From positions 1 through 53,098 of the IMG/VR virus record IMGVR_UViG_3300030090_000465: a stretch of DNA of 53,098 bases, one strand, 5' to 3'. The notes under the pieces are model-generated. The model saw nothing but the letters and a program-made list of their open reading frames with translations, had not been told where the DNA came from and ran no database searches. How positions within the stretch are numbered: position 1 is the stretch's first letter; every line of letters begins with the position of its first letter. Source of the DNA: a virus. Taxonomy: Duplodnaviria; Caudoviricetes. Position numbers and translations under genes: made by a program. Shown piece after piece: positions 1,197 through 46,321 of the stretch.

Positions 1197-2807
1197 TTAT
1201 CTCCTACCGGAAGGTCTATAGTCTACATAGAAACCATTTATTGAATAAGGTGCATTAGTATCCTGACTAAATATTTTAAAGGCTATATTGTGTCCACTTC
1301 CTTGTACTGCCTGTCTTGCCATAGGGTCTTGAGAAGCTCCGAATACTGCTGTATTAAAAGTTGAATCTCCAAATACTGCCGGAGTTGGTATTGAATCTAG
1401 TGTATAGTTTGGAGGCTGTGGTCTATTAGTATCATCAAAATCATATGTTATCTTTAATGTAGGCTGTACTGTTCCTTCAGGTGTAAAAGATATTTTTGTG
1501 TAGTGTAATGTTTTTAATGTTCCTGCATCTCCAAAATCTAAATTAGGTGTTTTATATCTTGCATCTATATTTGTTTCTGTTCCTGCCGGATTAAAAGAAT
1601 TTCCTGTATTATGATTATAAACATAGCCATCTTTATCACCATGATATATTTGTTCTACACTATTATTATCAAAACCTGATGTAAATCCATGAGCTTGTAT
1701 TCCTATTGTTTCAGACCACTCAAAACCTTGTGGTGTTATGGTTCCTATAATTCCTTTTGCTGTATCTGTAGAAGCTGCACCTGAACTATAAAATAATCTA
1801 TATTGAGACTTACTTCTTAATACTGCACTAGATATAACTAAAGAACCTATGTTAGAAGCTAAAGAAGCAACAATAGATTGTATTTGTCTTGATACTGAAC
1901 TTAACTCTACGTCACCAATACGAGCCGTACCTGCAACTAAACGAAATCCATCAGGGCTTAAAAATATAAGATCACCACCAATCTCTTGAATACTATTACC
2001 ATCTAAACAACCTACGTTTTTAGTTATAGGTGTAATAGCTATAGAATTTGAATCATTTATATTTACTAATTTATAAATACTGTTTTTACAAAATATAATT
2101 AAATCGCCACGGAAACTTTTTAGTCCTACTACTTGATCATCTAATACAATACTTCCAGAACCCGTTGAAGTAAAATCATTTATATCACTTGTGCCACTAT
2201 AGAATATAGTATTAGGTGCTGTAGCTGCTCCTGCAACTACTAAGTGTTTGTCGTGTATAGTACAAAACTTTGGATAGTGTGTACCACTTACTGTAATTTC
2301 TTCATAGAAAAAAGTTCTATCTGATAAGCTATCACCTGTACCTGTCATTTTAAATAAAGCAGGTTTTACGCCAGAACCTTTATCAGTTATTACTACTTCA
2401 CCATAAGTAGTATTTCCTTCAAATAATGTAAAGTTTGCATACGATTGACTTGTTCTAGTTGCTGTGCTTCTTCCTGTAAATGTAGAGTAATTATCTCCTG
2501 ATCCACTTACACTAGAACGATTTATTTGTACCCAACTTGTACCGTCTAAAGTAAAATAAAGATTAGTACCTGATGCTGCAATAACACCATCGGCATAAAC
2601 AAAAAGTCCTAATATTGGATTAGAACTATTAGGTCTTGCTGCACTACTGCCACCATAAAGTGTATAACCATTTATTCTTCTGTAACCACCATCAGGGTCA
2701 ACTTCAAAGTTTTGTAACTCTGTAGCAAATCCCGGTTGCTGTAACATTTGAAACTGGTTAAGATTAGTGTTTAGACCGCCTTGACATGATAAACCAAATG
2801 CTTGCAT
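1197..2807 (-). CDS. Tail tubular/nozzle protein (T7 gp12 / P22 gp10-like, beta-propeller)
   Basis: 536 aa, beta-rich; GGLN start and NVGC...SIQEIGGDLIFLSPDGFR motif typical of podovirus nozzle/stabilisation proteins; follows the adaptor gene. Confidence 0.75.
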   Translation of the reverse strand: MQAFGLSCQGGLNTNLNQFQMLQQPGFATELQNFEVDPDGGYRRINGYTLYGGSSAARPNSSNPILGLFVYADGVIAASGTNLYFTLDGTSWVQINRSSVSGSGDNYSTFTGRSTATRTSQSYANFTLFEGNTTYGEVVITDKGSGVKPALFKMTGTGDSLSDRTFFYEEITVSGTHYPKFCTIHDKHLVVAGAATAPNTIFYSGTSDINDFTSTGSGSIVLDDQVVGLKSFRGDLIIFCKNSIYKLVNINDSNSIAITPITKNVGCLDGNSIQEIGGDLIFLSPDGFRLVAGTARIGDVELSSVSRQIQSIVASLASNIGSLVISSAVLRSKSQYRLFYSSGAASTDTAKGIIGTITPQGFEWSETIGIQAHGFTSGFDNNSVEQIYHGDKDGYVYNHNTGNSFNPAGTETNIDARYKTPNLDFGDAGTLKTLHYTKISFTPEGTVQPTLKITYDFDDTNRPQPPNYTLDSIPTPAVFGDSTFNTAVFGASQDPMARQAVQGSGHNIAFKIFSQDTNAPYSINGFYVDYRPSGRR

Positions 2808-2809
2808 AG

Positions 2810-3580
2810 TTAATCAAACCTAACTCTGTCATCAGACATAAATGTTGGAACAGTCCCTATTAAGTTTTCCCTCATGCTTTTTAATCCCTTTCTATAATCT
2901 TCTAAGGCAAAAGCAGCCATTTGAGGGTTGTCTTTAAATTGATGTGTGTAATATCTAGCTTTAGATAATATCACTGTTTTATACAAATCAGGAAAAACTA
3001 TAGCATCGCTATGTGCAGATAGTTGTGTAGGAAGGTCGTAAGCAAAAAACCAAACCTTATAAACTTTATCGGGTATAGGACTTAATCCAAACTTTCTAGA
3101 ATCTGGACTTCTAATAACAAGATTAGGTTCTCCTCCTACTGCTTGATCAGCATCATCAGCATTTTCTCTAGCCCTTCTAAAGTCTTTCCATTTTTCTATA
3201 GTTACAAATCTTAAATTTTTAGAAACGTAAGGAGCTGATTCGCCACTTACACTTACTGTAGTTAAATAAAAATTATCCCAATCTATAGAGCCGTAGTCAT
3301 TTATTATAGATGAACTCGCAGCTTTTAATTCATACCACCTTGTACCTGCTACAGTATCTACTGATACATTGCCATACATAGGATCGGTAGCACCGCTTTC
3401 ACCTGTAGCTAAAAAAGGCCACTGAGGTTCTTCATTAACTATATCTAAGTATGATCTATTAATACAATCTTTAGCGTGTGCTTGAATACCTACAGCACTA
3501 GAAAAAGTTGAGGAAGTTAATACTACTTCATTTAACTCCCTTAATAGTTCATTTGTTAATTCTAAAAATGTAGTAGCCAT
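2810..3580 (-). CDS. Tail adaptor / tail tubular protein A-like
   Basis: 256 aa, TFLELTNELLRELNE N-terminus and WPF motif typical of podovirus head-tail adaptors; located between capsid and nozzle genes. Confidence 0.75.
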   Translation of the reverse strand: MATTFLELTNELLRELNEVVLTSSTFSSAVGIQAHAKDCINRSYLDIVNEEPQWPFLATGESGATDPMYGNVSVDTVAGTRWYELKAASSSIINDYGSIDWDNFYLTTVSVSGESAPYVSKNLRFVTIEKWKDFRRARENADDADQAVGGEPNLVIRSPDSRKFGLSPIPDKVYKVWFFAYDLPTQLSAHSDAIVFPDLYKTVILSKARYYTHQFKDNPQMAAFALEDYRKGLKSMRENLIGTVPTFMSDDRVRFD

Positions 3581-3582
3581 AA

Positions 3583-3753
3583 TTATTTTTCAAGCTCTTT
3601 ATGATTTACGGGATTATTAGGATTTCTAAAAACACGATCATAATTATCATCATATTTCTTTTTATCTTCAGCTTTCATATAGGCAGCACGAATTTTAACT
3701 TTATTATTAACATTAAACCGTACTGGATTTTTTTCACTTCCTATTTGTGGCAT
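3583..3753 (-). CDS. Small hypothetical protein (56 aa, MPQIGSEKNPVRF...)
   Basis: Manual translation; AAGGAA RBS; fills the gap between pqqA and the adaptor gene. Confidence 0.7.
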   Translation of the reverse strand: MPQIGSEKNPVRFNVNNKVKIRAAYMKAEDKKKYDDNYDRVFRNPNNPVNHKELEK

Positions 3754-3764
3754 ACTATATTTCC

Positions 3765-3836
3765 TTACCTATTGCTGTAATACATTGTGATTTCAAAACC
3801 AAGTCTAACATTTTCATAAGTAGGTTTAGTCCACAT
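3765..3836 (-). CDS. pqqA: Coenzyme PQQ precursor peptide PqqA (23 aa)
   Basis: [23 protein letters not shown]: matches the PqqA pattern W-x-K-P...R-x-G-F-E-[VI]-T-x-Y with the E-x3-Y pair; GGAGGT RBS (3844-3849) 7 nt upstream. Confidence 0.93.
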
Positions 3837-3851
3837 AATAATTACCTCCAA

Positions 3852-3882
3852 TAAAATTAAAGGGGGCATATTTCAGCCCCCC
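3852..3882 (-). terminator. Rho-independent terminator after the major capsid gene
   Basis: GGGGGC-tgaaatat-GCCCCC followed by TTTAATTTT on the - strand. Confidence 0.8.
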
Positions 3883-3889
3883 GTAATAT

Positions 3890-4879
3890 TTAGTCAATGC
3901 CGTAGAACGCAGAAACCAATGCTTCTGGACGTAGTACTTTAGCTCCATATACATGAAGACCTCGTACTATATCACCAAAGCTATCAGGATCACGAATTAC
4001 TTCAGTACTAGTAATAGTCTGAGCAGTTGCCGTGGATGACATATGACCTGCAATACACTTACCTGCTGCATTAGAGGTAGAAGCAATATTGTTAGTCTTG
4101 TACATATCAAATCCACGCAACTTACCAGTTGATACTAGTCCGTTACGGATTGAACCTTGACCTGCGTTGTAATCAACAGACAGAAGTTTAGAACTGCTTT
4201 GTACAAGCTGCTCATAAAACTCTGGGTTTGCTGCGAACCAACGACCTTCTTCTGGAACATTTTGCTCATCAAGAAGACGAGCCATGTGTGAAAGAACGTC
4301 AATAGGATCATGCTCACCAGAAGCAAAACCTATGTCTAGATTACCAGTACCATCAAAAGTACCTGCTGCTAGATCAGTTGCGTTGTCAGAACCTAAAATG
4401 TGATTAGGGCTAGAAGATGATACACCTGCAAACATTACTGCAAGCACACCTGCATCAAACGCATCTTTGATTGAATAAGCTGCTGAAGATGCAGCAACGT
4501 CACGAAAGTTAACGTGTGACATATTAGTTTCAATGTCATCTACGATAAACTTAAATGCGTTTGCTGTATCAACAACCAAGTTAATTTCTTGGTCTGTCAA
4601 CTTAGTCGCAGTTACGTCTTGTCCCCTTTCATACTGATAAACAGTAATTTCAGGTTCTTTGATAATTCTTACAGAATCACCATATGCCGCAATCTCTCCT
4701 GCATAATCTGTATTAGTAATTGCTTCTACTACAGATGATTTTCTAAAAAAGTTTAAAACAGTTTTAGAATAAATTGCAGGTAAGAAATACGAGTTTGTTT
4801 GACCCGATACGGAATTTGCAAAGTTTGCGTTAGTATCCGTAGACGGTTCAAAATATTGGTCAGATTGATTATAAGCCAT
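3890..4879 (-). CDS. Major capsid protein
   Basis: 329 aa; FLPAIYS, TNTDYAGEI..GDSVRI and FGDIVRGLHVYGAKVLRPEAL motifs of HK97-fold podovirus coat proteins; follows the scaffold gene. Confidence 0.92.
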   Translation of the reverse strand: MAYNQSDQYFEPSTDTNANFANSVSGQTNSYFLPAIYSKTVLNFFRKSSVVEAITNTDYAGEIAAYGDSVRIIKEPEITVYQYERGQDVTATKLTDQEINLVVDTANAFKFIVDDIETNMSHVNFRDVAASSAAYSIKDAFDAGVLAVMFAGVSSSSPNHILGSDNATDLAAGTFDGTGNLDIGFASGEHDPIDVLSHMARLLDEQNVPEEGRWFAANPEFYEQLVQSSSKLLSVDYNAGQGSIRNGLVSTGKLRGFDMYKTNNIASTSNAAGKCIAGHMSSTATAQTITSTEVIRDPDSFGDIVRGLHVYGAKVLRPEALVSAFYGID

Positions 4880-4899
4880 TGTAATATCCTCTCAAAAAC

Positions 4900-5754
4900 T
4901 TATTTAGCTATTCTGCCTTCTGCCAATGCTTGTTTGATTTCATCTTCATGCTTATCAAACTGGTCAATAGACATATTAGCAATTTCTCTTTCTGTCCAAA
5001 CTTTAGGAGCTTTCGCATCCACCGCAGTAGTTTTTGTAGACACCATATCGGCAGCAGACCTATTCTCCTCTTGCTTGGACTGCCTCTTTTGTGGTGGCTG
5101 ATTTATTCCCTTTTCCATTTTGTAAAGGTCAATAGCACGACTAGCTAAAGTAGCATCACTATTGTTAGCATAAATCCATTTTTGTATATCGTCAGGTTGT
5201 TCTTTAGCCCATTCGTGAAAAGCATCATCACCCCGTATATCTTCAAAATCTGGATGACGTTCCCTAAGAACTGTTTCAGCTTCTCGTTTCATAATGTCAG
5301 CTTCCCGTTCTTGCAAAGCTGTAAGTTGCTGTCTTAATTCTTCGGTTTGATTTTCACTTTGTAAATGAGCTACAGTTTCAACTGTCTCATACAAGTCTGG
5401 ATTTTTTGCTTTGAACTCCTCTAGTTCTTCTAAAGTTTTAGGAGCCTGATACTTAGGTGCTTTTTCAGCAGCCTCCGCAAGAAGCTCTTGTTCCTTTTGT
5501 TTGAACTCAGCAATTCTATTGTCGTAATGTTTCTTTAGGTCATCATACCTTTTCTTATAATTTACATCCTTAGAATTTTTAGCAGGGGGCGTTTCTGATT
5601 CCTCAGAAGGCGTAGCCTGTTCTTCTTTAGGTCGTGCATAGAATAATCCATCGGCATCACCCATTGATGGTTTATCAGGAGTGTGCCAATCTTTCTTTGC
5701 ATTATAAGGGTTAGGTGTTTTTTCCTCCACAGGATTAGTTTGTGCTTCAGCCAT
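4900..5754 (-). CDS. Capsid scaffolding protein
   Basis: 284 aa, acidic and coiled-coil, YKKRYDDL and HPDF motifs, C-terminal EDEIKQALAEGRI; directly upstream of the capsid gene. Confidence 0.8.
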   Translation of the reverse strand: MAEAQTNPVEEKTPNPYNAKKDWHTPDKPSMGDADGLFYARPKEEQATPSEESETPPAKNSKDVNYKKRYDDLKKHYDNRIAEFKQKEQELLAEAAEKAPKYQAPKTLEELEEFKAKNPDLYETVETVAHLQSENQTEELRQQLTALQEREADIMKREAETVLRERHPDFEDIRGDDAFHEWAKEQPDDIQKWIYANNSDATLASRAIDLYKMEKGINQPPQKRQSKQEENRSAADMVSTKTTAVDAKAPKVWTEREIANMSIDQFDKHEDEIKQALAEGRIAK

Positions 5755-5768
5755 AATACTTCCTCCAC

Positions 5769-5853
5769 GGGGCTTGTAAGTTTTAAAAGGTAGCCATTAC
5801 AATAAATTATTTGTACGGATAATTTATAATGGTGCTTTTACTTCAAGGTAGCC
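5769..5853 (-). promoter_or_regulatory. Structured 5' leader of the scaffold gene with duplicated GGCTACCTT...AAGC(A/C)CC boxes
   Basis: aaggtagcc at 5787-5795 and 5845-5853; gg(g/t)gctt at 5769 and 5831; AT-rich inverted repeat between the boxes. Confidence 0.55.
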
Positions 5854-5854
5854 G

Positions 5855-7027
5855 TTATCGTTGTCTAACATTTAGGCTAGGCATTTGATTAGAAGACATC
5901 ATTACTTTATTCATGTCATCTTCTAAATCAGTTTCCTCGCCCTTCTTCATTAAACCACCATCATAAGCACGTTCAGCTTCATCCATCATACGTTGAAGTC
6001 TGTCTGCACCTATTTGATCAGTGGCCTTTCTAGTCATCACAAATTCACCGTCAGATAATCTAGCGGGTATTGAATCTGAGACTCCCGTTCCCGGCCCTGT
6101 AACTTCTCCAGAGCCAGTAAACTCAGAAGCCGTTCCTACAACTTTGTCAAATATCATACTCAGTTGAGGATCGCCTTCTAAAGCGTTCATTAAATATGTT
6201 TGTTCTTCAGGTTGTAAAGCTTCGTTTACTACATAATCAATAAACTGATCTTCCATTTGTTGATCTGGAAGTTGTGAAGCTTCTACTGCTGCCATTTGTT
6301 CTGGTGGTATATTAGGGTAAGTATCTACTGGAACTTCACCACCCTCTTGAAATACATCACGGCCTTTAAGAATATCAGCCTGTGTTACTTTTCCATCACC
6401 TGTTAAGTCTGGAAACTTACCGCCTTCTGCAAAATTTCCACGAACTTCTCTAGGTCTAAGAGTAGATTGTATATCTGGAAGCTCTCCACTAAATATAGCT
6501 TTATCTTCATCTGAAAGACTATTCATAAATTTACGAGCATCTGAAGGACTAAGAGAATTAGTATATTCAAATATTTCTTCCATATCATTAAATAATTCTA
6601 AATTTTTAGCTGCATCTTCTGGATTCATTCCTTTTATTCTTTCTGCCATATTATCTAATGGATCATCTGCTAACCCCATATTAGCTCTTATTTTTTGTGG
6701 AAGAAAATCCATAACTTCTTTAAAATCTTCATCTGAAAGATCATCTAAAGCTCTAGGGTCTGACTCAGCTATTTCTGTTAATTGCCTTAAATTTTGTTCT
6801 TGATCTACCATTCGACCTTTAACATCTTTTGTTTGTTTACCTATAATTTTTTCTACAAGATCAACAACTAGTCGGCCTTTATTATAAGTTTCTCTTTCAG
6901 GAGGAACCATCATACCGCCATCCATTTTCTTTTCTTTAACTGCTACAGTTATAGCAACATCAGGAGCAGCTAGTAAGGCTTCTTTTCTTTTTCTACGTTG
7001 TCTATTTCTTTTAGATTTACTAGCCAT
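5855..7027 (-). CDS. Hypothetical virion-associated protein
   Basis: 390 aa; EF-hand-like DLTGDGKVTQAD loop, GPGTGVSDSIPARLSDGEFV motif, repeated FxxGG motifs. Confidence 0.75.
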   Translation of the reverse strand: MASKSKRNRQRRKRKEALLAAPDVAITVAVKEKKMDGGMMVPPERETYNKGRLVVDLVEKIIGKQTKDVKGRMVDQEQNLRQLTEIAESDPRALDDLSDEDFKEVMDFLPQKIRANMGLADDPLDNMAERIKGMNPEDAAKNLELFNDMEEIFEYTNSLSPSDARKFMNSLSDEDKAIFSGELPDIQSTLRPREVRGNFAEGGKFPDLTGDGKVTQADILKGRDVFQEGGEVPVDTYPNIPPEQMAAVEASQLPDQQMEDQFIDYVVNEALQPEEQTYLMNALEGDPQLSMIFDKVVGTASEFTGSGEVTGPGTGVSDSIPARLSDGEFVMTRKATDQIGADRLQRMMDEAERAYDGGLMKKGEETDLEDDMNKVMMSSNQMPSLNVRQR

Positions 7028-7177
7028 TTACTTTCCCCTATGAACTTTTTGTACATCAAAATTTGCATTTAACGTAGCACCTTTATGTGGCTTAAACTTA
7101 CCAGTGTGTTTCATAAGTTTATAGCCACCATTTTTTTGTTTCATCCAATGGTATCCTGCGGGAGCTTTAACTTTCAT
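7028..7177 (-). CDS. Small basic protein (49 aa, MKVKAPAGYHWMKQKNGGYKLMKH...)
   Basis: Manual translation; ATGA overlap with the upstream stop, own stop abuts the next ATG. Confidence 0.7.
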   Translation of the reverse strand: MKVKAPAGYHWMKQKNGGYKLMKHTGKFKPHKGATLNANFDVQKVHRGK

Positions 7178-7395
7178 TGTTTGGTCATGTCCTGTATTTG
7201 TAGTAAGTCGTTTACAATTTTTAATTTTTCTTCTGCTGCTGCTACTTGTTCTATTAGTTTATCTACTTCACCAACTAAGTCTGGATGTTCAGGTACACCT
7301 ACAGAACCAGATAAATAATTTTCTATATTAACAGCAAGTACTTCTAACTCTGCTGAGTATTTAGAAGCTAAAGCACTAAGTATTAAATCTCTCAC
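7174..7395 (-). CDS. Hypothetical protein (VGVPEHPD motif)
   Basis: 73-aa ORF with overlapping start/stop on both sides. Confidence 0.7.
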   Translation of the reverse strand: MRDLILSALASKYSAELEVLAVNIENYLSGSVGVPEHPDLVGEVDKLIEQVAAAEEKLKIVNDLLQIQDMTKQ

Positions 7396-7637
7396 TTTCT
7401 TCTATACTTCCTTGTTTTCTTTGCAATACGTTTAGGTTGTTTTGAGTGTTGCTTTCCTTTTGCAGTATCTTCTCTTTTCTTTCTTGTTGTAGCAGCGTAC
7501 TCTTTAGCAGATAAAGACTTTATAGCTTTTTCTGGTAAATATCTTTCACCTGTTTTAGCACTAGGTTTTCCAGATTTAGTACGCCACTTTTGTTTAGTCC
7601 AAGATTTAAGACTTTTTTGTGATTTCTTTAATGCCAT
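7392..7637 (-). CDS. Small Lys-rich phage protein
   Basis: SLKSWTKQKWRTKSGKPS...GERYLP, a motif common in marine phage basic proteins. Confidence 0.75.
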   Translation of the reverse strand: MALKKSQKSLKSWTKQKWRTKSGKPSAKTGERYLPEKAIKSLSAKEYAATTRKKREDTAKGKQHSKQPKRIAKKTRKYRRK

Positions 7638-8008: not shown

Positions 8009-8120
8009 CAGGCCATTCCTCTTTTATCCATTCGTTATAGCACAAAAATTTTCTTTGTGGATAAGACCAATACTTTCCTTGATAGCTAGGAGTCTCTTCC
8101 TCTAGCTTCACTAATTTCAT
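7959..8120 (-). CDS. Small hypothetical protein (53 aa, MKLVKLEEETPSYQGKYWSY...)
   Basis: ATGA overlap with the portal stop codon; manual translation. Confidence 0.55.
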   Translation of the reverse strand: MKLVKLEEETPSYQGKYWSYPQRKFLCYNEWIKEEWPDGSKEKDNQEKNIKSE

Positions 8121-8313
8121 CCTTCAACTGCTCTAGGCGTTCCAGAGAATTGATCCTCCCCTGACTGCGGAACATTTCCTGTTCCGATATTGCCCCCACC
8201 AGTACCCGTAACTCCAAGGTCTTGAGGTTGTTGAGGTGTTCCATCAGGGCTTCCCATAACTCCTTGTTGCTCGTTAGGAGTGAGAGGCGTTTCGCCAGTT
8301 GCTTGTCCAACAT
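8086..8313 (-). CDS. Helical protein overprinted on the portal C-terminus
   Basis: 75 aa, LWEALMEHL...EMFRSQGRINSLERLEQLKDEI resembles the small helical gene that typically follows the portal in such podoviruses. Confidence 0.6.
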   Translation of the reverse strand: MLDKQLAKRLSLLTSNKELWEALMEHLNNLKTLELRVLVGAISEQEMFRSQGRINSLERLEQLKDEISEARGRDS

Positions 8314-10306
8314 TATTTTGCATCCCTATAATTTGAGCCATAATAGCTGCTTCTTCTGGATCATTGAGTATTTCATCAGGATCAAGATCAAGCGAGTATG
8401 CAAGCTCTCCAATGAGTTTATTAATCTTAACAAACGGAGCAATAGCAGGATTCTGTACACTTTGAAGAAAAGTAGTAAGCCTTTGGCTTCGTACTTCCTT
8501 CTGCATAAGACTTGCTGTACCAGTAGCCTTAACTTCTAAGTCTCCTTCTACGCCCAACTTACTTTCTAAGAATTGCATATTCCATTGAAAGTACGCTTCC
8601 CCTAAAGGCTTTAAAAGAAAGTCATCAAGATTTTTAATAACAGTCTTTATGTTTAGTGAAGCTGCTCCAAGTAGCATCGACATACCTGATGCTGTTCTTG
8701 TCATACTTTGAACACCTGTTTGTCCATGAGAGTAACTAGGTATTCCTGTTTGTTCGTCTGCAAGTTGTCTAAACTTATCAAACATCATCATGTTTTCTGT
8801 AGATGTATTAGGAAACTTCAAACCATTTATAGCTGTACCCGGAACTCCTGCTTGTCTGCGGAATACTTTACCCGGATATATTTCCATACTCTGTCCACCT
8901 ACAAGGGCGGTTTCATCTACATCAAATACTAATGATCCTGATAGTGCTAGATTATCTATTGCCATACGAGCATGACCATTCATAATCTTTTGAGAGTCAT
9001 CCATGTTCTCAGCAACACCAATACCAAAAAAACTATAAGGATTTTTTTCATAAGAGAAAGCATGGTAAGGAATACGGTGTGGCGTAAATGGATTTACAAC
9101 TGCTCTTAATACTTTTCCATTTGAAACCCAAGCATTAATCTGTACTTCATCTAAATCATCTACATCATCACTTAGCTCCATGCCTACTTCTCTGGCATAC
9201 TGAGCATCCATAATGCCCCAATACTCTAGTACTTCATACTTAGCAGAACCCATGTCAGACATTCTATTATCGTCTTTTAGTTCATACTCATAATCTTTTT
9301 CTTCGTAGCTTGGCCCCATTTCAAGACACATTCGTATTTGATCTTTATTAAAATAAGGGAGCTTAGACAAACTTCTAAATTGTGAACGATTAAGTTTATG
9401 TCTATGAATTACATATTCACATTCATCTATGCTAGTTGCATTAGGGTCTGGAAAAAAATCCCAAATACTTACAAACTCAATTCGAGGCACACGAACTTGA
9501 ACAGGATTATAAGTACGCTCTCCATCTTCATCAGTCCATCTATTTAATGTTTTATTAAAATTAAATGGGCCTTTAACAATTCCTGTTCCAAATAGAGATG
9601 CTTCAAACAAAGAACTTCTTATTTCACTAGCACCATTAGATTCTTCTATTTGATCATGAATTAACTTTTCCATGCGTCTTGCTGCTTTTTGTGCAGGTTT
9701 TATTTCTGGAAGTTGTGGATTTGCAGAAGCTCCTTCAGTTAAAGAATCTTGGGCTTTTTTATCTAAATGTCCTTCAAACTTACCAGTACCATAAGTAGCA
9801 CCTGCTTTTAAAGTTCTACCATCTCCTTCATAACCTACATCATAAGGACTTTCTACTTCTTCTTCACCTTCTTCACCCATGCTAGTTTCAATTCCCGGCA
9901 CAGGATTATTAGTATCTAGGTGTGCAATTTCTGGAATACCTTCTGGTATTTTAGTTTCTGACACACCTATAGGAAACTTATTGCCTCCAAAGATAACATC
10001 TACTAATTGACCAAAAGCTGCAAGAACTTTTGTTTTAGTAACTTTTACAAATACTCTGGATTTTTCTGATTCTCTAAACTTTACATTTTTAGGATACAGC
10101 CCACGATAATTATGATAGGATGTCATCCATCTGTTTTCATCAGCATCTCTAGCTAACTCAGCAGAAGTAAATCTGTCTTGTATAAGTCCGGCAAGTTTAT
10201 TATTTAAATCTTCTTCAAGATTTAAGTTCATACCCTCTTCATCATCTACTGATTCAAAGTAAAGACCATCAGCGTTTTGTATTAAAGTATTTTCTTCTTC
10301 AGCCAT
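8117..10306 (-). CDS. Portal (head-to-tail connector) protein
   Basis: 729 aa; ESEKSRVFVKVTKTKVLAAFGQ, VSIWDFFPDP and RTASGMSML motifs; located between terminase and scaffold genes. Confidence 0.92.
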   Translation of the reverse strand: MAEEENTLIQNADGLYFESVDDEEGMNLNLEEDLNNKLAGLIQDRFTSAELARDADENRWMTSYHNYRGLYPKNVKFRESEKSRVFVKVTKTKVLAAFGQLVDVIFGGNKFPIGVSETKIPEGIPEIAHLDTNNPVPGIETSMGEEGEEEVESPYDVGYEGDGRTLKAGATYGTGKFEGHLDKKAQDSLTEGASANPQLPEIKPAQKAARRMEKLIHDQIEESNGASEIRSSLFEASLFGTGIVKGPFNFNKTLNRWTDEDGERTYNPVQVRVPRIEFVSIWDFFPDPNATSIDECEYVIHRHKLNRSQFRSLSKLPYFNKDQIRMCLEMGPSYEEKDYEYELKDDNRMSDMGSAKYEVLEYWGIMDAQYAREVGMELSDDVDDLDEVQINAWVSNGKVLRAVVNPFTPHRIPYHAFSYEKNPYSFFGIGVAENMDDSQKIMNGHARMAIDNLALSGSLVFDVDETALVGGQSMEIYPGKVFRRQAGVPGTAINGLKFPNTSTENMMMFDKFRQLADEQTGIPSYSHGQTGVQSMTRTASGMSMLLGAASLNIKTVIKNLDDFLLKPLGEAYFQWNMQFLESKLGVEGDLEVKATGTASLMQKEVRSQRLTTFLQSVQNPAIAPFVKINKLIGELAYSLDLDPDEILNDPEEAAIMAQIIGMQNNVGQATGETPLTPNEQQGVMGSPDGTPQQPQDLGVTGTGGGNIGTGNVPQSGEDQFSGTPRAVEG

Positions 10307-10996: not shown

Positions 10997-12673
10997 CTAA
11001 TAGCCAAATTCGCTATCAGCCGGGGTATAAGCCTGTTCCAAATGTAGATTTCTTATTCTGCTAAAAGAATCTTGTATTCTTGGTCTAGACATTATTAAGT
11101 AGCGCAGAGCATCATAAGCGTGATCTGGCGCGTGAGTATCAACATCTTCAGGGTTTGAACGATCCAGAGGAATACTTTGTAGCTCCCGTATCAGGTTAGG
11201 ACAAGTATTAAATATCTGTAGTCGTGGCCTACCGCTTTGTTGCACTTTTAAGTATTCGTGGATTTGTATCTTTCCTTGTATCCTATTTTTATCGGCCCTT
11301 CGTAGTTTATGACCTGCACGAATTAAGGACTCACCTACTGTTGGGCCTGTAGTTCCTGTCCTAGCCCACGCTGCCGTGTCTAAAACCCCTTGAACTGAAT
11401 AAGGATCACTTAATTCCATTTGAGTAATCCTATCTCCTAAATCTTCTCCCGTCAAACCTTTTTGATATAATTCTCTATAAATTATAAGAGTACCGTCTGA
11501 TGGGTCTACCGTTCCCCATACACAAGAACTTTCAGAAGCATATCCATAGTCAATACCTTTTGTACGTTCCCACGATATAGGAATTTCAAAAGGTGTAATA
11601 ACGTGTACGTCTTGTTCAAACTCGGTAAAGGCTGCTCCTTCATTAACATCCCAATTACCTTCTAAAAGCTGCTTCCTTTGAGTTGGAGGCAATGCTTTTA
11701 GCATTTCTTCATATCTACCATCTTCAGCTAAGTAAGGATTGTCATCTAGCCTAGCCGGAATAAACTTTCGAGTTAGATTGTCTTCTCCAGTAAACGATTC
11801 GTTAGGTGGATGTGGATCAACATATCTCTTCTTTACCCATGTAGCTCCAACACCACCGGGGTTTGCTGTACACCGCATATAGGGTGTAATCTCAGGGTCG
11901 GTCGTTCTTAGGCGAGAAGCGAGATAATTCCATCCAAACTCAGTGGGCAAGTGAGTAATCTCGTCAAAACCAATCCAAGAATAGGCTTGGCCTTGATACC
12001 GATAGACATCGGCATCTCGCTCTAAGAAGCCGAACTCTACTTTGGCTCCGCTTGGGAAGTTCCAAAGTTTTTCAACCTCTTTGTACTTACACCCCGGAAA
12101 TGCTTTGGGGTAAAGTTCCCTACTTTTATCTATGAGTTCTCTTAACTCTGGCATAGACCTTCTAAGTATTAACGCCCTGTGTGCTGCTCTGTGTGCAAAA
12201 CGTAGCGGGTCAATAAGCATAGCATAAGACTTTCCACCACCTGCTGCACCACCATAAAGTACATCACGCTCTGGTGCTGCTAAGAAGTCTGTTTGAGGCC
12301 CAGTGTTAGGTTTAAATATAACATTGTCATCGACTTCTTGCTTTAGAGCTTTAGGTACTTTATCTAGTATATCTTCAGTAACAACTTTATTAGTTGTTTT
12401 CTTTTCTAGTTTGTTTAATGTTTCTTTAGAAGCATTTAATGAATTTCGTTTAGCTTCTAATCTTTGTTTTAATTTTTCTGTTCTTCTTTCTTTATCTTTA
12501 ACTGCTCGTCTTGCTTTAATCTTTGCCTTAGTCTCAGAGTGGTAGTTATACCCTCTACCTTTAGACCCTTTGGGCCTTCCGGTCTTTTTACGGGGAGTAC
12601 CATCTTTTTTAAGTATGAAGTTCCCATCTTCATCAGTCAGGTAGTTCTGTGGATTCTCTTTCCAATCTTCCAT
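10997..12673 (-). CDS. terL: Terminase large subunit
   Basis: Walker A YGGAAGGGKS, Walker B WIGFDE, TANPGG coupling motif, nuclease GIDYG and DHAYDALRY. Confidence 0.96.
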   Translation of the reverse strand: MEDWKENPQNYLTDEDGNFILKKDGTPRKKTGRPKGSKGRGYNYHSETKAKIKARRAVKDKERRTEKLKQRLEAKRNSLNASKETLNKLEKKTTNKVVTEDILDKVPKALKQEVDDNVIFKPNTGPQTDFLAAPERDVLYGGAAGGGKSYAMLIDPLRFAHRAAHRALILRRSMPELRELIDKSRELYPKAFPGCKYKEVEKLWNFPSGAKVEFGFLERDADVYRYQGQAYSWIGFDEITHLPTEFGWNYLASRLRTTDPEITPYMRCTANPGGVGATWVKKRYVDPHPPNESFTGEDNLTRKFIPARLDDNPYLAEDGRYEEMLKALPPTQRKQLLEGNWDVNEGAAFTEFEQDVHVITPFEIPISWERTKGIDYGYASESSCVWGTVDPSDGTLIIYRELYQKGLTGEDLGDRITQMELSDPYSVQGVLDTAAWARTGTTGPTVGESLIRAGHKLRRADKNRIQGKIQIHEYLKVQQSGRPRLQIFNTCPNLIRELQSIPLDRSNPEDVDTHAPDHAYDALRYLIMSRPRIQDSFSRIRNLHLEQAYTPADSEFGY

Positions 12674-16052: not shown

Positions 16053-16138
16053 GGACAGGTATGCAAGTGGTTAAAGCAAACAGTCTGTAAAACTGTCACC
16101 TTTAGGTTTCGTAGGTTCAAATCCTACCCTGTCCACCA
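16053..16138 (+). tRNA. tRNA-Tyr(GUA)
   Basis: Acceptor GGACAGG/CCTGTCC plus A-CCA; anticodon arm ACAGT-CTGTAAA-ACTGT; long variable arm; T arm GTAGG-TTCAAAT-CCTAC. Confidence 0.95.
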
Positions 16139-31886: not shown

Positions 31887-32086
31887 TGTCCTGCCATCAT
31901 CCTCCTATCGACATTACAATAACTAATGTTATCGCACCCACCTGAGTTTAAAATATTTTGATTGCTTGGAATATTACGCATAAAAATATCTTGGTTTCTG
32001 GCATCTTGCATGGCCCAATCTTGAGCAGACCTTTCCGGCAAACTACTGCAACCAGTTATAACTAAAGCAATAAGTAAGTATCTCAT
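31883..32086 (-). CDS. Small lipoprotein
   Basis: Lipobox ITG-C; CxxxxxC near the C-terminus. Confidence 0.7.
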   Translation of the reverse strand: MRYLLIALVITGCSSLPERSAQDWAMQDARNQDIFMRNIPSNQNILNSGGCDNISYCNVDRRMMAGQ

Positions 32087-33366
32087 TGTGCTACTAATCT
32101 CCTGTTGTTTCTTTCGGTTAGCATTTCCTGATAACCTTCTTCATCAAGATGAGTTACTGCTATCCAAGCATGAGTCATTTCATCTCCTGTTCTACTGCCT
32201 CCATAAACCCACTGATCTGCATCAGGGTTGTTAGGATTATCGTCAGTGTTGTCATACCATTGTTTAAGAACTAATACTGCCCCTGTTGGAATCAAAGGTG
32301 CAAAGTCTGGATCATATATGTGACTGTGATGCCATGTTGCACTCCAGTTAGATACCTGACTAATTTGCTCAGTTATTCCAGTATCAGGGTAAAATATTTC
32401 AAAGCTTGCTGCGTTCATTCTTAGGTGTCCATGAGGTTGCCATGAATCAATGCGAACAGGGTGATCAAAGGAGTGGAATCCCTGAGTCATGTGATAACCA
32501 TGAGGAGGAATAACAATATCATCTTGATCGCTTATCCTGTAAAGCTTGAGGTCTTGAGCATATGTAAGTGCCTTAGATTCCTCTGGAGAGTATAGCCATA
32601 GTCCTATCTCTACAACATTATCTTCAATAATAGTTCCGGGTGCTATAGCTCCTAAACCACCGGGAAACATATGAATGTCCCAAGCTATCTCAGAGTTAGC
32701 AGGTATGGTACGACAGACACCTTCAGGTACTATCTCGCCCCATTTACCCATAGCATACTCTGTCAACATCCCGTATCTTTCACCATCAACATTAACGGAG
32801 CTATTGGCATGATGCACTACACTCTTAGCATCGCCTCTTGGCTTAACTTGGATAGCTTTAATACATCTATCCTCTGTCAACCCACTAGCTACATTGTGTT
32901 TGTGCCATAGGTCATTACCACTGGCAGGTATATCTATAGGAGTAGAAGGAATAACCATTGTAGGCTCTCCAAACTCTCCGTAGAAGTTCCACTGATCGGG
33001 GTCTGAAAGGGCCGGAGGTTGTACTACAACATCTGTATTTCCATACTCTGATCCGGTATCTACCCACTCTACTATCGTGGCTATATCGGCCTCTGAGAGC
33101 CTCCAATCACCATGTAATTCCTGTATTCCTATACCCTGATCATAGGCATATGGCGGCATCTCTCTGTTAGCAACTTTAAGTTGTATCAAAGGACTCCACG
33201 GTCTGACTTGATCATAGGTTTCGAACTGCATTGGGCCAATCCCACCATCACGGTGACACACAACACAATTATTATTTATTATTTCAGCTACATCATCTAC
33301 ATAAGTAGGTGCTCCATGAGCCATAGAGCTACACAACATAGCTCCAACTAGTAGTAAATATCTCAT
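32083..33366 (-). CDS. Secreted cytochrome c / type II copper monooxygenase (PHM/DBH-like) fusion
   Basis: Signal peptide; CVVCH heme-c motif; VVHH + IH (CuH), HGH + EM (CuM) ligands. Confidence 0.85.
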   Translation of the reverse strand: MRYLLLVGAMLCSSMAHGAPTYVDDVAEIINNNCVVCHRDGGIGPMQFETYDQVRPWSPLIQLKVANREMPPYAYDQGIGIQELHGDWRLSEADIATIVEWVDTGSEYGNTDVVVQPPALSDPDQWNFYGEFGEPTMVIPSTPIDIPASGNDLWHKHNVASGLTEDRCIKAIQVKPRGDAKSVVHHANSSVNVDGERYGMLTEYAMGKWGEIVPEGVCRTIPANSEIAWDIHMFPGGLGAIAPGTIIEDNVVEIGLWLYSPEESKALTYAQDLKLYRISDQDDIVIPPHGYHMTQGFHSFDHPVRIDSWQPHGHLRMNAASFEIFYPDTGITEQISQVSNWSATWHHSHIYDPDFAPLIPTGAVLVLKQWYDNTDDNPNNPDADQWVYGGSRTGDEMTHAWIAVTHLDEEGYQEMLTERNNRRLVAQ

Positions 33367-45837: not shown

Positions 45838-46131
45838 TTAACACTTCCACCGTTTTCTTGCTTGACGTAACCTAGAATTAGGATTCTTAGCTGCTTTTGG
45901 AAACTTTTTCATCTGCCCCGCAGAACGAGCACAGAACGACTTACGCCTCTTTGCGTCCTTACTACCTTTCTTAACCTTGCCCGTAACTGCTGTTTGCAAC
46001 TTAGAGCCGGGATTGTCTCTACGGTATTTAGCCACACCCTTCTTGGTCATACCTGCACCAGATTTAGTTGGACGCTTATGACCACCTTTAATGGTGTGGC
46101 CTTTCATAGACCCTTTTTTCTTAGTTGCCAT
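45838..46131 (-). CDS. Basic phage protein (DUF6321-like)
   Basis: GMTKKG...NPGSKL...RRKSFCAR...RWKC. Confidence 0.75.
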   Translation of the reverse strand: MATKKKGSMKGHTIKGGHKRPTKSGAGMTKKGVAKYRRDNPGSKLQTAVTGKVKKGSKDAKRRKSFCARSAGQMKKFPKAAKNPNSRLRQARKRWKC

Positions 46132-46132
46132 A

Positions 46133-46321
46133 CTACTTATCCTCACTAAATGATAAAAGTTCAATAGTTATATTAGTTTTATAAACATCTAAAAGACCTA
46201 TGATAGCTTCAAGAGGTACACCTCTATCTGCTTGAGTAACAAGATAATCTACTAGTTCTTTAGTAGCAGTTTCAATTAATTTATCTTTATTTTTAGGATT
46301 TAAATAAACAATGTTTTCCAT
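46133..46321 (-). CDS. Hypothetical protein
   Basis: Likely start MENIVYL. Confidence 0.6.
   Translation of the reverse strand: MENIVYLNPKNKDKLIETATKELVDYLVTQADRGVPLEAIIGLLDVYKTNITIELLSFSEDK

Follow-up and report, generated by a model that had tools for sequence, protein, structure and literature searches.

A predicted host-derived pqqA gene directly behind the capsid gene of a marine HMO-2011-type podophage

The window analyzed here, a virus record of 53,098 bp that CheckV rates as 100% complete, is the genome of a phage that we place by capsid identities in the HMO-2011-type group of marine podophages. Its major capsid protein is 60% identical at the amino acid level to that of pelagiphage HTVC115P and 40 to 47% identical to those of HMO-2011, the Roseobacter CRP phages, and HTVC033P. 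A 23-codon open reading frame (ORF) immediately downstream of the capsid gene is predicted to encode PqqA, the precursor peptide of the cofactor pyrroloquinoline quinone (PQQ) (Table 1). The neighbors of this ORF are all minus-strand late structural genes, and with capsid, portal, terminase, and adaptor genes around the site, it sits inside a bona fide viral genome. The 56-codon ORF that follows it has no PHROG or Pfam match. Elsewhere, a plus-strand block encodes a primase-helicase, a family A DNA polymerase, endonuclease I, a DUF3310 protein, and both ribonucleotide reductase (RNR) subunits; other minus-strand genes encode an M15 peptidase, a holin with three transmembrane segments, and a DUF6321 protein. 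A tRNA-Tyr gene (anticodon GTA) is located at 16053-16138 on the plus strand, in the early/replication region.

Table 1. Coordinates of the predicted pqqA gene and of the late genes and signals that surround it in the window
Feature	Position	Strand	Basis or remark
Terminase large subunit	10997-12673	(-)	Profile annotation
Portal	8117-10306	(-)	Profile annotation
Sigma-70-like promoter match, 11/12	4868..4895	(-)	Before the capsid gene; consensus match only
Major capsid protein	3890-4879	(-)	phrog_267, E = 3.5e-69; PF25209
Capsid intrinsic terminator	3851..3882	(-)	7-bp G/C stem at 3882-3861, then U-rich tail
GGAGGT ribosome-binding site	3844..3849	(-)	7 nt upstream of the pqqA ATG; read directly
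Predicted pqqA	3765..3836	(-)	23 codons plus TAA stop; translation, PF08042 and TIGR02107 matches
56-codon late ORF	3583..3753	(-)	AAGGAA ribosome-binding site overlaps the pqqA stop
SU10-type adaptor/tail protein	2810..3580	(-)	phrog_10775, E = 2e-70; PF24175; next in the late operon
Large virion proteins	downstream of 2810	(-)	Profile annotation

As read from the sequence, the ORF runs on the minus strand from an ATG at 3836-3834 to a TAA at 3767-3765. Its product has the 23 residues and the W-x-K-P ... R-x-G-x-E-x-T-x-Y pattern of PqqA, and the pair of residues to be cross-linked (E-x3-Y) consists of Glu15 (3794-3792) and Tyr19 (3782-3780) within E15-I-T-M-Y19, a spacing that is equal in every aligned phage and bacterial PqqA copy. 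The original prediction had called this ORF a stand-alone PqqA with a GGAGGT ribosome-binding site 7 nt upstream, just past the capsid terminator. Its coordinates and sequence were right, with the (minus) strand left unstated, and the gene map and a hairpin scan bear out the position directly behind the capsid gene and its terminator. The identification itself came through the profile search that had been proposed as its check far above the cutoffs, with 39.4 bits against a cutoff of 21.1 for PF08042 (E = 5e-10) and 44.2 bits against a cutoff of 20 for TIGR02107 (E = 1e-11). Because both curated PqqA models are passed at about twice the cutoff, the ORF is not a chance one. A six-frame search of the whole 53-kb genome returned 3765-3836 as the single PqqA match above cutoff, and the same search of 14 control genomes returned none above it. 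Judged by its sequence, the ORF at 3765-3836 is best read as a genuine, host-derived pqqA. A longer reading of 34 codons, from an ATG at 3869, was rejected, as it starts inside the terminator hairpin and is without a ribosome-binding site; the homologues, all of which begin at the M-W position, also speak against it.

The genome encodes none of the partners of PqqA that we looked for. Models for PqqB-E (TIGR02108, TIGR02109, TIGR02111, and TIGR03859) gave zero matches at E ≤ 1 in the complete genome, in agreement with the earlier statement that no pqqB-E genes are present; the PqqC model, run as a control, was positive on four of five bacterial genomes. A genomic association of pqqA with pqqB, C, D, and E is thus absent from the phage genome; solitary copies are common in bacteria as well. 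Likewise, no PQQ-dependent dehydrogenase appeared in the Pfam annotation of the 40 larger phage ORFs.

The capsid terminator hairpin at 3882-3861, for which folding gives −17.8 kcal/mol (z = −2.7), ends 12 bases short of the pqqA ribosome-binding site and is present in all 17 relatives inspected, with or without pqqA. Capsid relatives in IMG/VR number at least 600, and we took the best 80 (86 to 97% identity) with their flanks; three of these loci end too near the capsid gene to judge, which leaves 77 evaluable. By pattern (regular expression) and profile search, 6 of these 80 best relatives (77 evaluable) contain a PqqA ORF, in each case directly behind the capsid gene. The synteny that had been suggested as a check is seen in these six, and most relatives are without pqqA. 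One of the six (L009) encodes a peptide identical to that of the window, with one synonymous difference in the gene. The others (L010, L012, L028, L069, and L073) carry a second variant in the slot, MKWSKPTYQK(I/L)RLGFEVTMYFKQV, with a ribosome-binding site, GGAGAA, positioned as is the GGAGGT of the window. Where pqqA is lacking, the 56-codon ORF begins ~50 to 60 nt past the capsid stop and the terminator abuts its ribosome-binding site; the pqqA insert amounts to ~90 nt, comprising the ribosome-binding site and the ORF with no flanking host DNA. No pqqA was found anywhere in five near-complete relatives (85 to 100% complete), which, together with the small share of relatives that carry a slot copy, indicates that the gene is dispensable.

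Other relatives hold different micro-ORFs in the same slot. These include Cys-rich ORFs of 10 to 16 codons with the motif C-x-C-x2-C-x-C (L016, L025, and L026), a 16-codon ORF (L014), and an ORF of ~85 codons (L048), and every one of them has a ribosome-binding site to itself. In this phage group, the site behind the capsid terminator looks like a hotspot for tiny cargo ORFs.

The original prediction also described the locus as highly expressed. The strong terminator that precedes pqqA weakens this description, and a sequence scan detected no promoter match between the hairpin and pqqA. Since no promoter match follows the hairpin, pqqA would be expressed by read-through of the terminator, together with the downstream late genes. 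Marine metatranscriptome libraries contain the pqqA region, and contigs from two of them reach from the capsid 3′ end across pqqA into the beginning of the next ORF (X2 record 6, 3672-4048; X3 record 9, 3672-4178). Being contigs rather than raw reads, they give neither strand, ends, nor level, and DNA carry-over is possible; they are a weak hint at pqqA expression, in which depth and uncovered stretches carry no weight. Two RNA contigs of higher depth (44.6 and 28.6, from X2 and X3; window 3764-3839) cover pqqA only and share with the cellular contig L458 (see below) both its synonymous changes and its 3′ flank. An L458-type bacterium, the putative donor or host lineage, thus occurs in the samples that contain the phage.

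A scan of metagenome contigs with the window-type motif gave at least 119 stretches, 80 of which were taken. An intact PqqA ORF is present in 77 of the 80, and 24 of the 80 are cellular, given the PqqB-E homologues that adjoin their pqqA. Two uncultured marine contigs (L458 and L484; 42 to 43% G+C) encode a PqqA that is identical to the phage peptide at 22 of 23 residues, and the genes agree with that of the phage at 67/72 and 65/72 nucleotides, respectively. The sole difference between the phage peptide and the L458 copy is Y20F, outside the cross-link pair. In the L458 cluster (1473-7055), the genes run pqqA-B-D-E-C; a terminator separates pqqA from pqqB, and a gene for a TonB-dependent receptor lies immediately downstream of the cluster. 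The products of the four genes after pqqA all score above the curated equivalog cutoffs (PqqB, 405.6 bits; PqqD, 84.3; PqqE, 517.9; PqqC, 367.9). No PQQ-dependent enzyme was identified on this contig. The G+C content of the phage is ~35%, versus 42 to 43% for these best cellular matches.

Other phage copies point to other donors. The second slot variant (in L010) agrees with the window peptide at 13 of 22 residues and with the cellular type L513 at 20 of 22, and a phage copy at a different site (L379) is identical to the cellular L456 at 63 of 66 nucleotides. Because phage copies are each nearer to some cellular type than to each other, they look like separate acquisitions from different bacterial types, as far as sequence comparison can tell.

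Named bacteria offer more distant relatives of the phage peptide. Among the matches listed, the best of 80 named bacterial loci agrees with it at 14 of 22 residues. Among 401 genomes sampled from the class to which a Methylophaga genome belongs, the best identity was 70 to 74%, with any match at all in 55 of the 401 and with the top loci that we looked at on high-G+C contigs; four unpublished genomes count in this tally alone. In 201 Methylophilaceae genomes, identity peaked at 61%. A Methylophilales (OM43) host for the window phage was considered and is unsupported by the peptide type, given that ceiling in the Methylophilaceae, and the host need not be a methylotroph. The PqqB-E proteins of L458 are only 46 to 71% identical to those of the named loci, tblastn against phage records found no pqqA in the closest cultured capsid relatives (pelagiphages), and a literature search on pqqA in marine clades turned up nothing that pointed to the host lineage.

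The tblastn search with the phage peptide found matches in 12 of 50,697 phage records, of which 9 come from phages isolated on Methylophilales or Methylophilaceae. In Venkman, MEP401, MEP402, MEP301, and P19250A, pqqA is not annotated. In the four Melnitz genomes, the match is listed with an annotated “hypothetical protein,” and in the inspected genome, Melnitz-1, that ORF covers pqqA from the opposite strand. An opposite-strand annotated ORF also overlies pqqA in MW202481, an uncultured spring-water podovirus. The pqqA-bearing cultured phages are of sipho-, podo-, and myovirus types, and the copies from Venkman, MEP402, P19250A, MEP301, Melnitz-1, and MW202481, as well as the slot copies of L009, L010, and L012, score 34 to 44 bits with TIGR02107. 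It had been expected that gene callers would miss a gene of this size, and the records of the cultured Methylophilales phages, unannotated or with an ORF on the wrong strand, show this to be so. The remaining two records are labeled “Acinetobacter phage MD-2021a.” The one inspected (CAKLQF020000010.1; L007) is an ordinary bacterial pqqBCDE locus, with a polyphosphate kinase, a full pqqA-BCDE operon, and a dipeptidase; it looks like a bacterial chromosome rather than a phage, and the second record may be likewise.

Viral pqqA is widespread. Uncultured viruses were covered by three pattern scans of IMG/VR, each with at least 120 matches, for which the viral label of IMG/VR was accepted except where phage genes were seen. 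Among the matches listed, the first scan gave an intact PqqA ORF of 23 to 25 codons in 80 of 80 loci, and the second and third gave an intact PqqA ORF in 67 of 70 and 80 of 80 loci, respectively. Among the matches listed, PqqB-E occurred near none of 87 viral pqqA copies (80 IMG/VR loci, 6 phage-record loci from five cultured phages and one uncultured phage genome, and the window) and near none of 70 in a second viral set; bacterial comparison loci had PqqB-E nearby in 25 to 36 of 80 cases, again among the matches listed. The description of the phage pqqA as a stand-alone gene accordingly fits both the window genome and the viral loci tested.

By sequence, the viral copies include two types: those ending in ...EMRFGFEVTMYVMNK, which match Methylophilaceae chromosomal copies exactly, and window-like ones (...YE..RLGFE(I/V)TMYF..). 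Window-like copies occur at several phage sites. Behind the capsid gene, the window variant recurs in L009, L385, L393, L403, and L402 (in L402, the last pqqA residues contain ambiguous bases). Other copies lie beside the RNR small subunit gene, adjoining a homologue of the window ORF at 7392-7637, or near distant homologues of the window ORF at 32083-33366. Nine contigs (L108, L115, L349, L352, L358, L386, L391, L396, and L406) carry a window-like pqqA directly behind a homologue of the DUF6321 gene (85 to 97% identical; window gene at 45838-46164, minus strand). These contigs have a G+C content of 45 to 48%, or 39% in L115, and the DUF6321 site is a second recurrent insertion site.

Viral pqqA is under purifying selection, as a dN/dS test named in the original prediction found. 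With the Nei-Gojobori method and a ratio of means, 12 distinct viral sequences of the window-like type gave a dN/dS of 0.15 (52 usable pairs), and 72 distinct ones of the Methylophilaceae-like type gave 0.105 (1,967 usable pairs). Host derivation and purifying selection, two of the marks of an auxiliary metabolic gene, are thus both seen here, the former in the 67/72 nucleotide identity to a cellular copy. The residues W, P, R, G, E, T, and Y are invariant in the viral copies, each being encoded by several synonymous codons, and the cross-link Glu and Tyr, whose loss in related phages would have spoken against the prediction, are kept. The invariance of the G-F-E-[IV]-T-M-Y core in two of the viral sets was partly forced by the search patterns. 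The third scan constrained the leader half only (MWTKP-x5-R-[LF]-G-F), and E-x-T-x-Y and a length of exactly 23 codons were nevertheless found in 80 of 80 loci among the matches listed. As these hits were free to vary in the other half and retain the motif, the viral peptide is more readily understood as a substrate that is processed than as a dead decoy.

Taken together, the close match to a cellular operon copy, the purifying selection, and the unchanging Glu and Tyr argue that the phage most likely supplies consumable PqqA precursor to the PQQ machinery of its host. We put the probability that a host-derived pqqA cassette in the late operon feeds host PQQ synthesis during infection at roughly 0.7. 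In such a scheme, a cassette of ~90 nt would have been inserted downstream of the capsid terminator and ahead of the next late gene in a lytic podophage, and late transcription that reads through the terminator would give rise to the PqqA peptide. Host PqqD and PqqE would cross-link Glu15 to Tyr19, after which host PqqB, PqqC, and peptidases would process the cross-linked product to PQQ. The phage copy would keep up or raise the supply of precursor as host gene expression declines. The sustained activity of periplasmic PQQ-dependent dehydrogenases and respiration could then favor phage production. This scheme presumes that the peptide is translated in infected cells, that host enzymes process it, and that the phage benefits.

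What is known of the pathway is compatible with such a supply-side role. One PqqA is used per PQQ, PqqE cross-links Glu to Tyr, and PqqD is a peptide chaperone (in part from the sections of PMC9851590 available to us); with one peptide consumed for each PQQ, an additional copy would sustain the precursor supply. The same sections describe a methylotroph with five pqqA copies, three of which are solitary and one of these highly expressed, and cite a study in which added PqqA peptide was converted to PQQ in cell extract (PMC9851590). In Acetobacter, overexpression of pqqAB raised PQQ by 29%, a modest effect versus that of the full cluster, according to the portion of that report at hand (PMC7936290). 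The solitary bacterial copies, the conversion in extract, and the effect of pqqAB overexpression all fit this role. In our sample of Methylophilaceae, 124 of 201 genomes matched the phage peptide at E ≤ 1e-4, with 1 to 12 matches per genome, and multiple pqqA copies are the rule in this family.

Because PQQ is stable as a cofactor, the need for fresh PQQ within one infection cycle is an assumption. This bears on the alternative that survives best, in which a peptide derived from PqqA has another role: as a signal or regulator acting on the host pqq or dehydrogenase regulon, as a source of PQQ for antioxidant use, or as the substrate of a different maturase. The phage annotation contains no PQQ-dependent enzyme and none was identified on the matching cellular contig, as would suit such a role, and a benefit from extra PQQ within one infection is conjectural. 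However, the viral copies are under the same constraints as cellular PqqA, down to the residues that become PQQ, and no alternative maturase was seen near the viral loci in the PqqB-E search or in the Pfam annotation of the window. We regard another role, its regulator version included, as unlikely.

A neutral passenger, that is, a recently captured fragment of host DNA sitting without benefit in a permissive slot, would explain why pqqA occurs in a minority of relatives (6 of the best 80 of at least 600, and none of the five near-complete ones), why unrelated micro-ORFs occupy the same slot in other relatives, and why nucleotide identity to a cellular copy is so high. It fits poorly with a dN/dS of 0.10 to 0.15 over many distinct viral sequences and with a cassette that is trimmed to a ribosome-binding site and an ORF, without flanking host DNA. 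Nor would it account easily for acquisition at several sites by unrelated phage types, Methylophilales sipho-, podo-, and myoviruses included, or for the return of the window variant behind the capsid gene in the five contigs named above. On balance, a passenger is very unlikely. Least probable is the decoy that the original prediction had offered as its alternative (titration of PqqD), in which the phage peptide binds or floods host PqqD/PqqE and halts PQQ synthesis or diverts radical-SAM capacity: viral copies do conserve the leader half (W-x-K-P ... R-x-G), which any binder of PqqD would require, and the phage is without processing enzymes, but nothing would hold a decoy to the reactive Glu or Tyr, and selection might even remove them, yet E-x-T-x-Y and native length persist in 80 of 80 loci among the matches listed, the window peptide departs from the cellular operon copy by Y20F alone, and cells themselves have many extra solitary pqqA copies (also described in the available part of PMC9851590).

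Precursor supply, the reading that we prefer, has counterparts in known systems. Compared with bacterial PqqA (pqqABCDE(F/G); TIGR02107 and PF08042), the phage peptide shares the 23-residue length class, the conserved pattern, and up to 22 of 23 residues, whereas the gene lies in a late operon behind a capsid terminator rather than before pqqB, in a genome without any pqqB-E. Like the solitary pqqA copies of methylotrophs, it is a micro-gene that stands apart from the genes for processing; in methylotrophs, the copies are chromosomal and host regulated, whereas the phage copy is mobile, virus carried, and timed by the late program of the phage. A parallel in principle is cyanophage psbA, a phage copy of a quickly used-up host component that keeps energy metabolism going after host expression fails. 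The difference is that psbA encodes a full protein subunit, whereas pqqA encodes a 23-residue peptide that is destroyed for the cofactor and needs four or more host enzymes.

Viral PqqA as a class is already published. Coutinho et al. (2020) reported PqqA in the Lake Baikal viral population VP_266 and proposed that it raises PQQ for the methanol dehydrogenase of the host; according to the text of that report that was available, VP_266 is a freshwater virus with a predicted methylotroph host and itself carries methanol dehydrogenase (PMC7678222). The window phage, in contrast, belongs to the marine HMO-2011-type podophages, lacks a dehydrogenase gene, and has a PqqA that matches a marine lineage rather than the Methylophilaceae (at most 61% identity in 201 genomes). 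A 2026 study of reservoir sediment lists viral pqqA, pqqD, and pqqE among phosphorus-cycling genes, as stated in the part of it consulted (PMC13188868). In the main texts of the papers on Melnitz, MEP401/402, MEP301, and HMO-2011-type phages, we found no mention of a phage pqqA. New here are the marine HMO-2011-type case, the anatomy of the cargo slot, the near-identical cellular donor type, and the evidence of repeated capture, as well as the unannotated pqqA copies in cultured OM43 and LD28 phages.

More broadly, and at somewhat less than even odds, phage pqqA may be an auxiliary gene that is pervasive but has been overlooked, probably smaller than any other known and the first class made up of a RiPP precursor alone, captured repeatedly and at different sites by unrelated phages, marine as well as freshwater, of PQQ-making bacteria, with each copy matching the PqqA type of the local host. 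If so, the supply of precursor peptide would be an infection-sensitive bottleneck of PQQ-dependent energy metabolism, and the peptide type could mark host linkage for uncultured phages. Abundant aquatic bacteria oxidize methanol, alcohols, and sugars by means of PQQ-dependent dehydrogenases, and if phages top up the precursor, infection would directly tune one-carbon and alcohol turnover. As the present case shows, the annotation of phages systematically overlooks genes of 70 nt whose function is clear. The cultured OM43 phage-host pairs, all with an unannotated copy, make the hypothesis directly testable. On the bacterial side, the four streamlined 1.3-Mb Methylophilaceae genomes tested (from the G405-G602 sample) all have PqqC.
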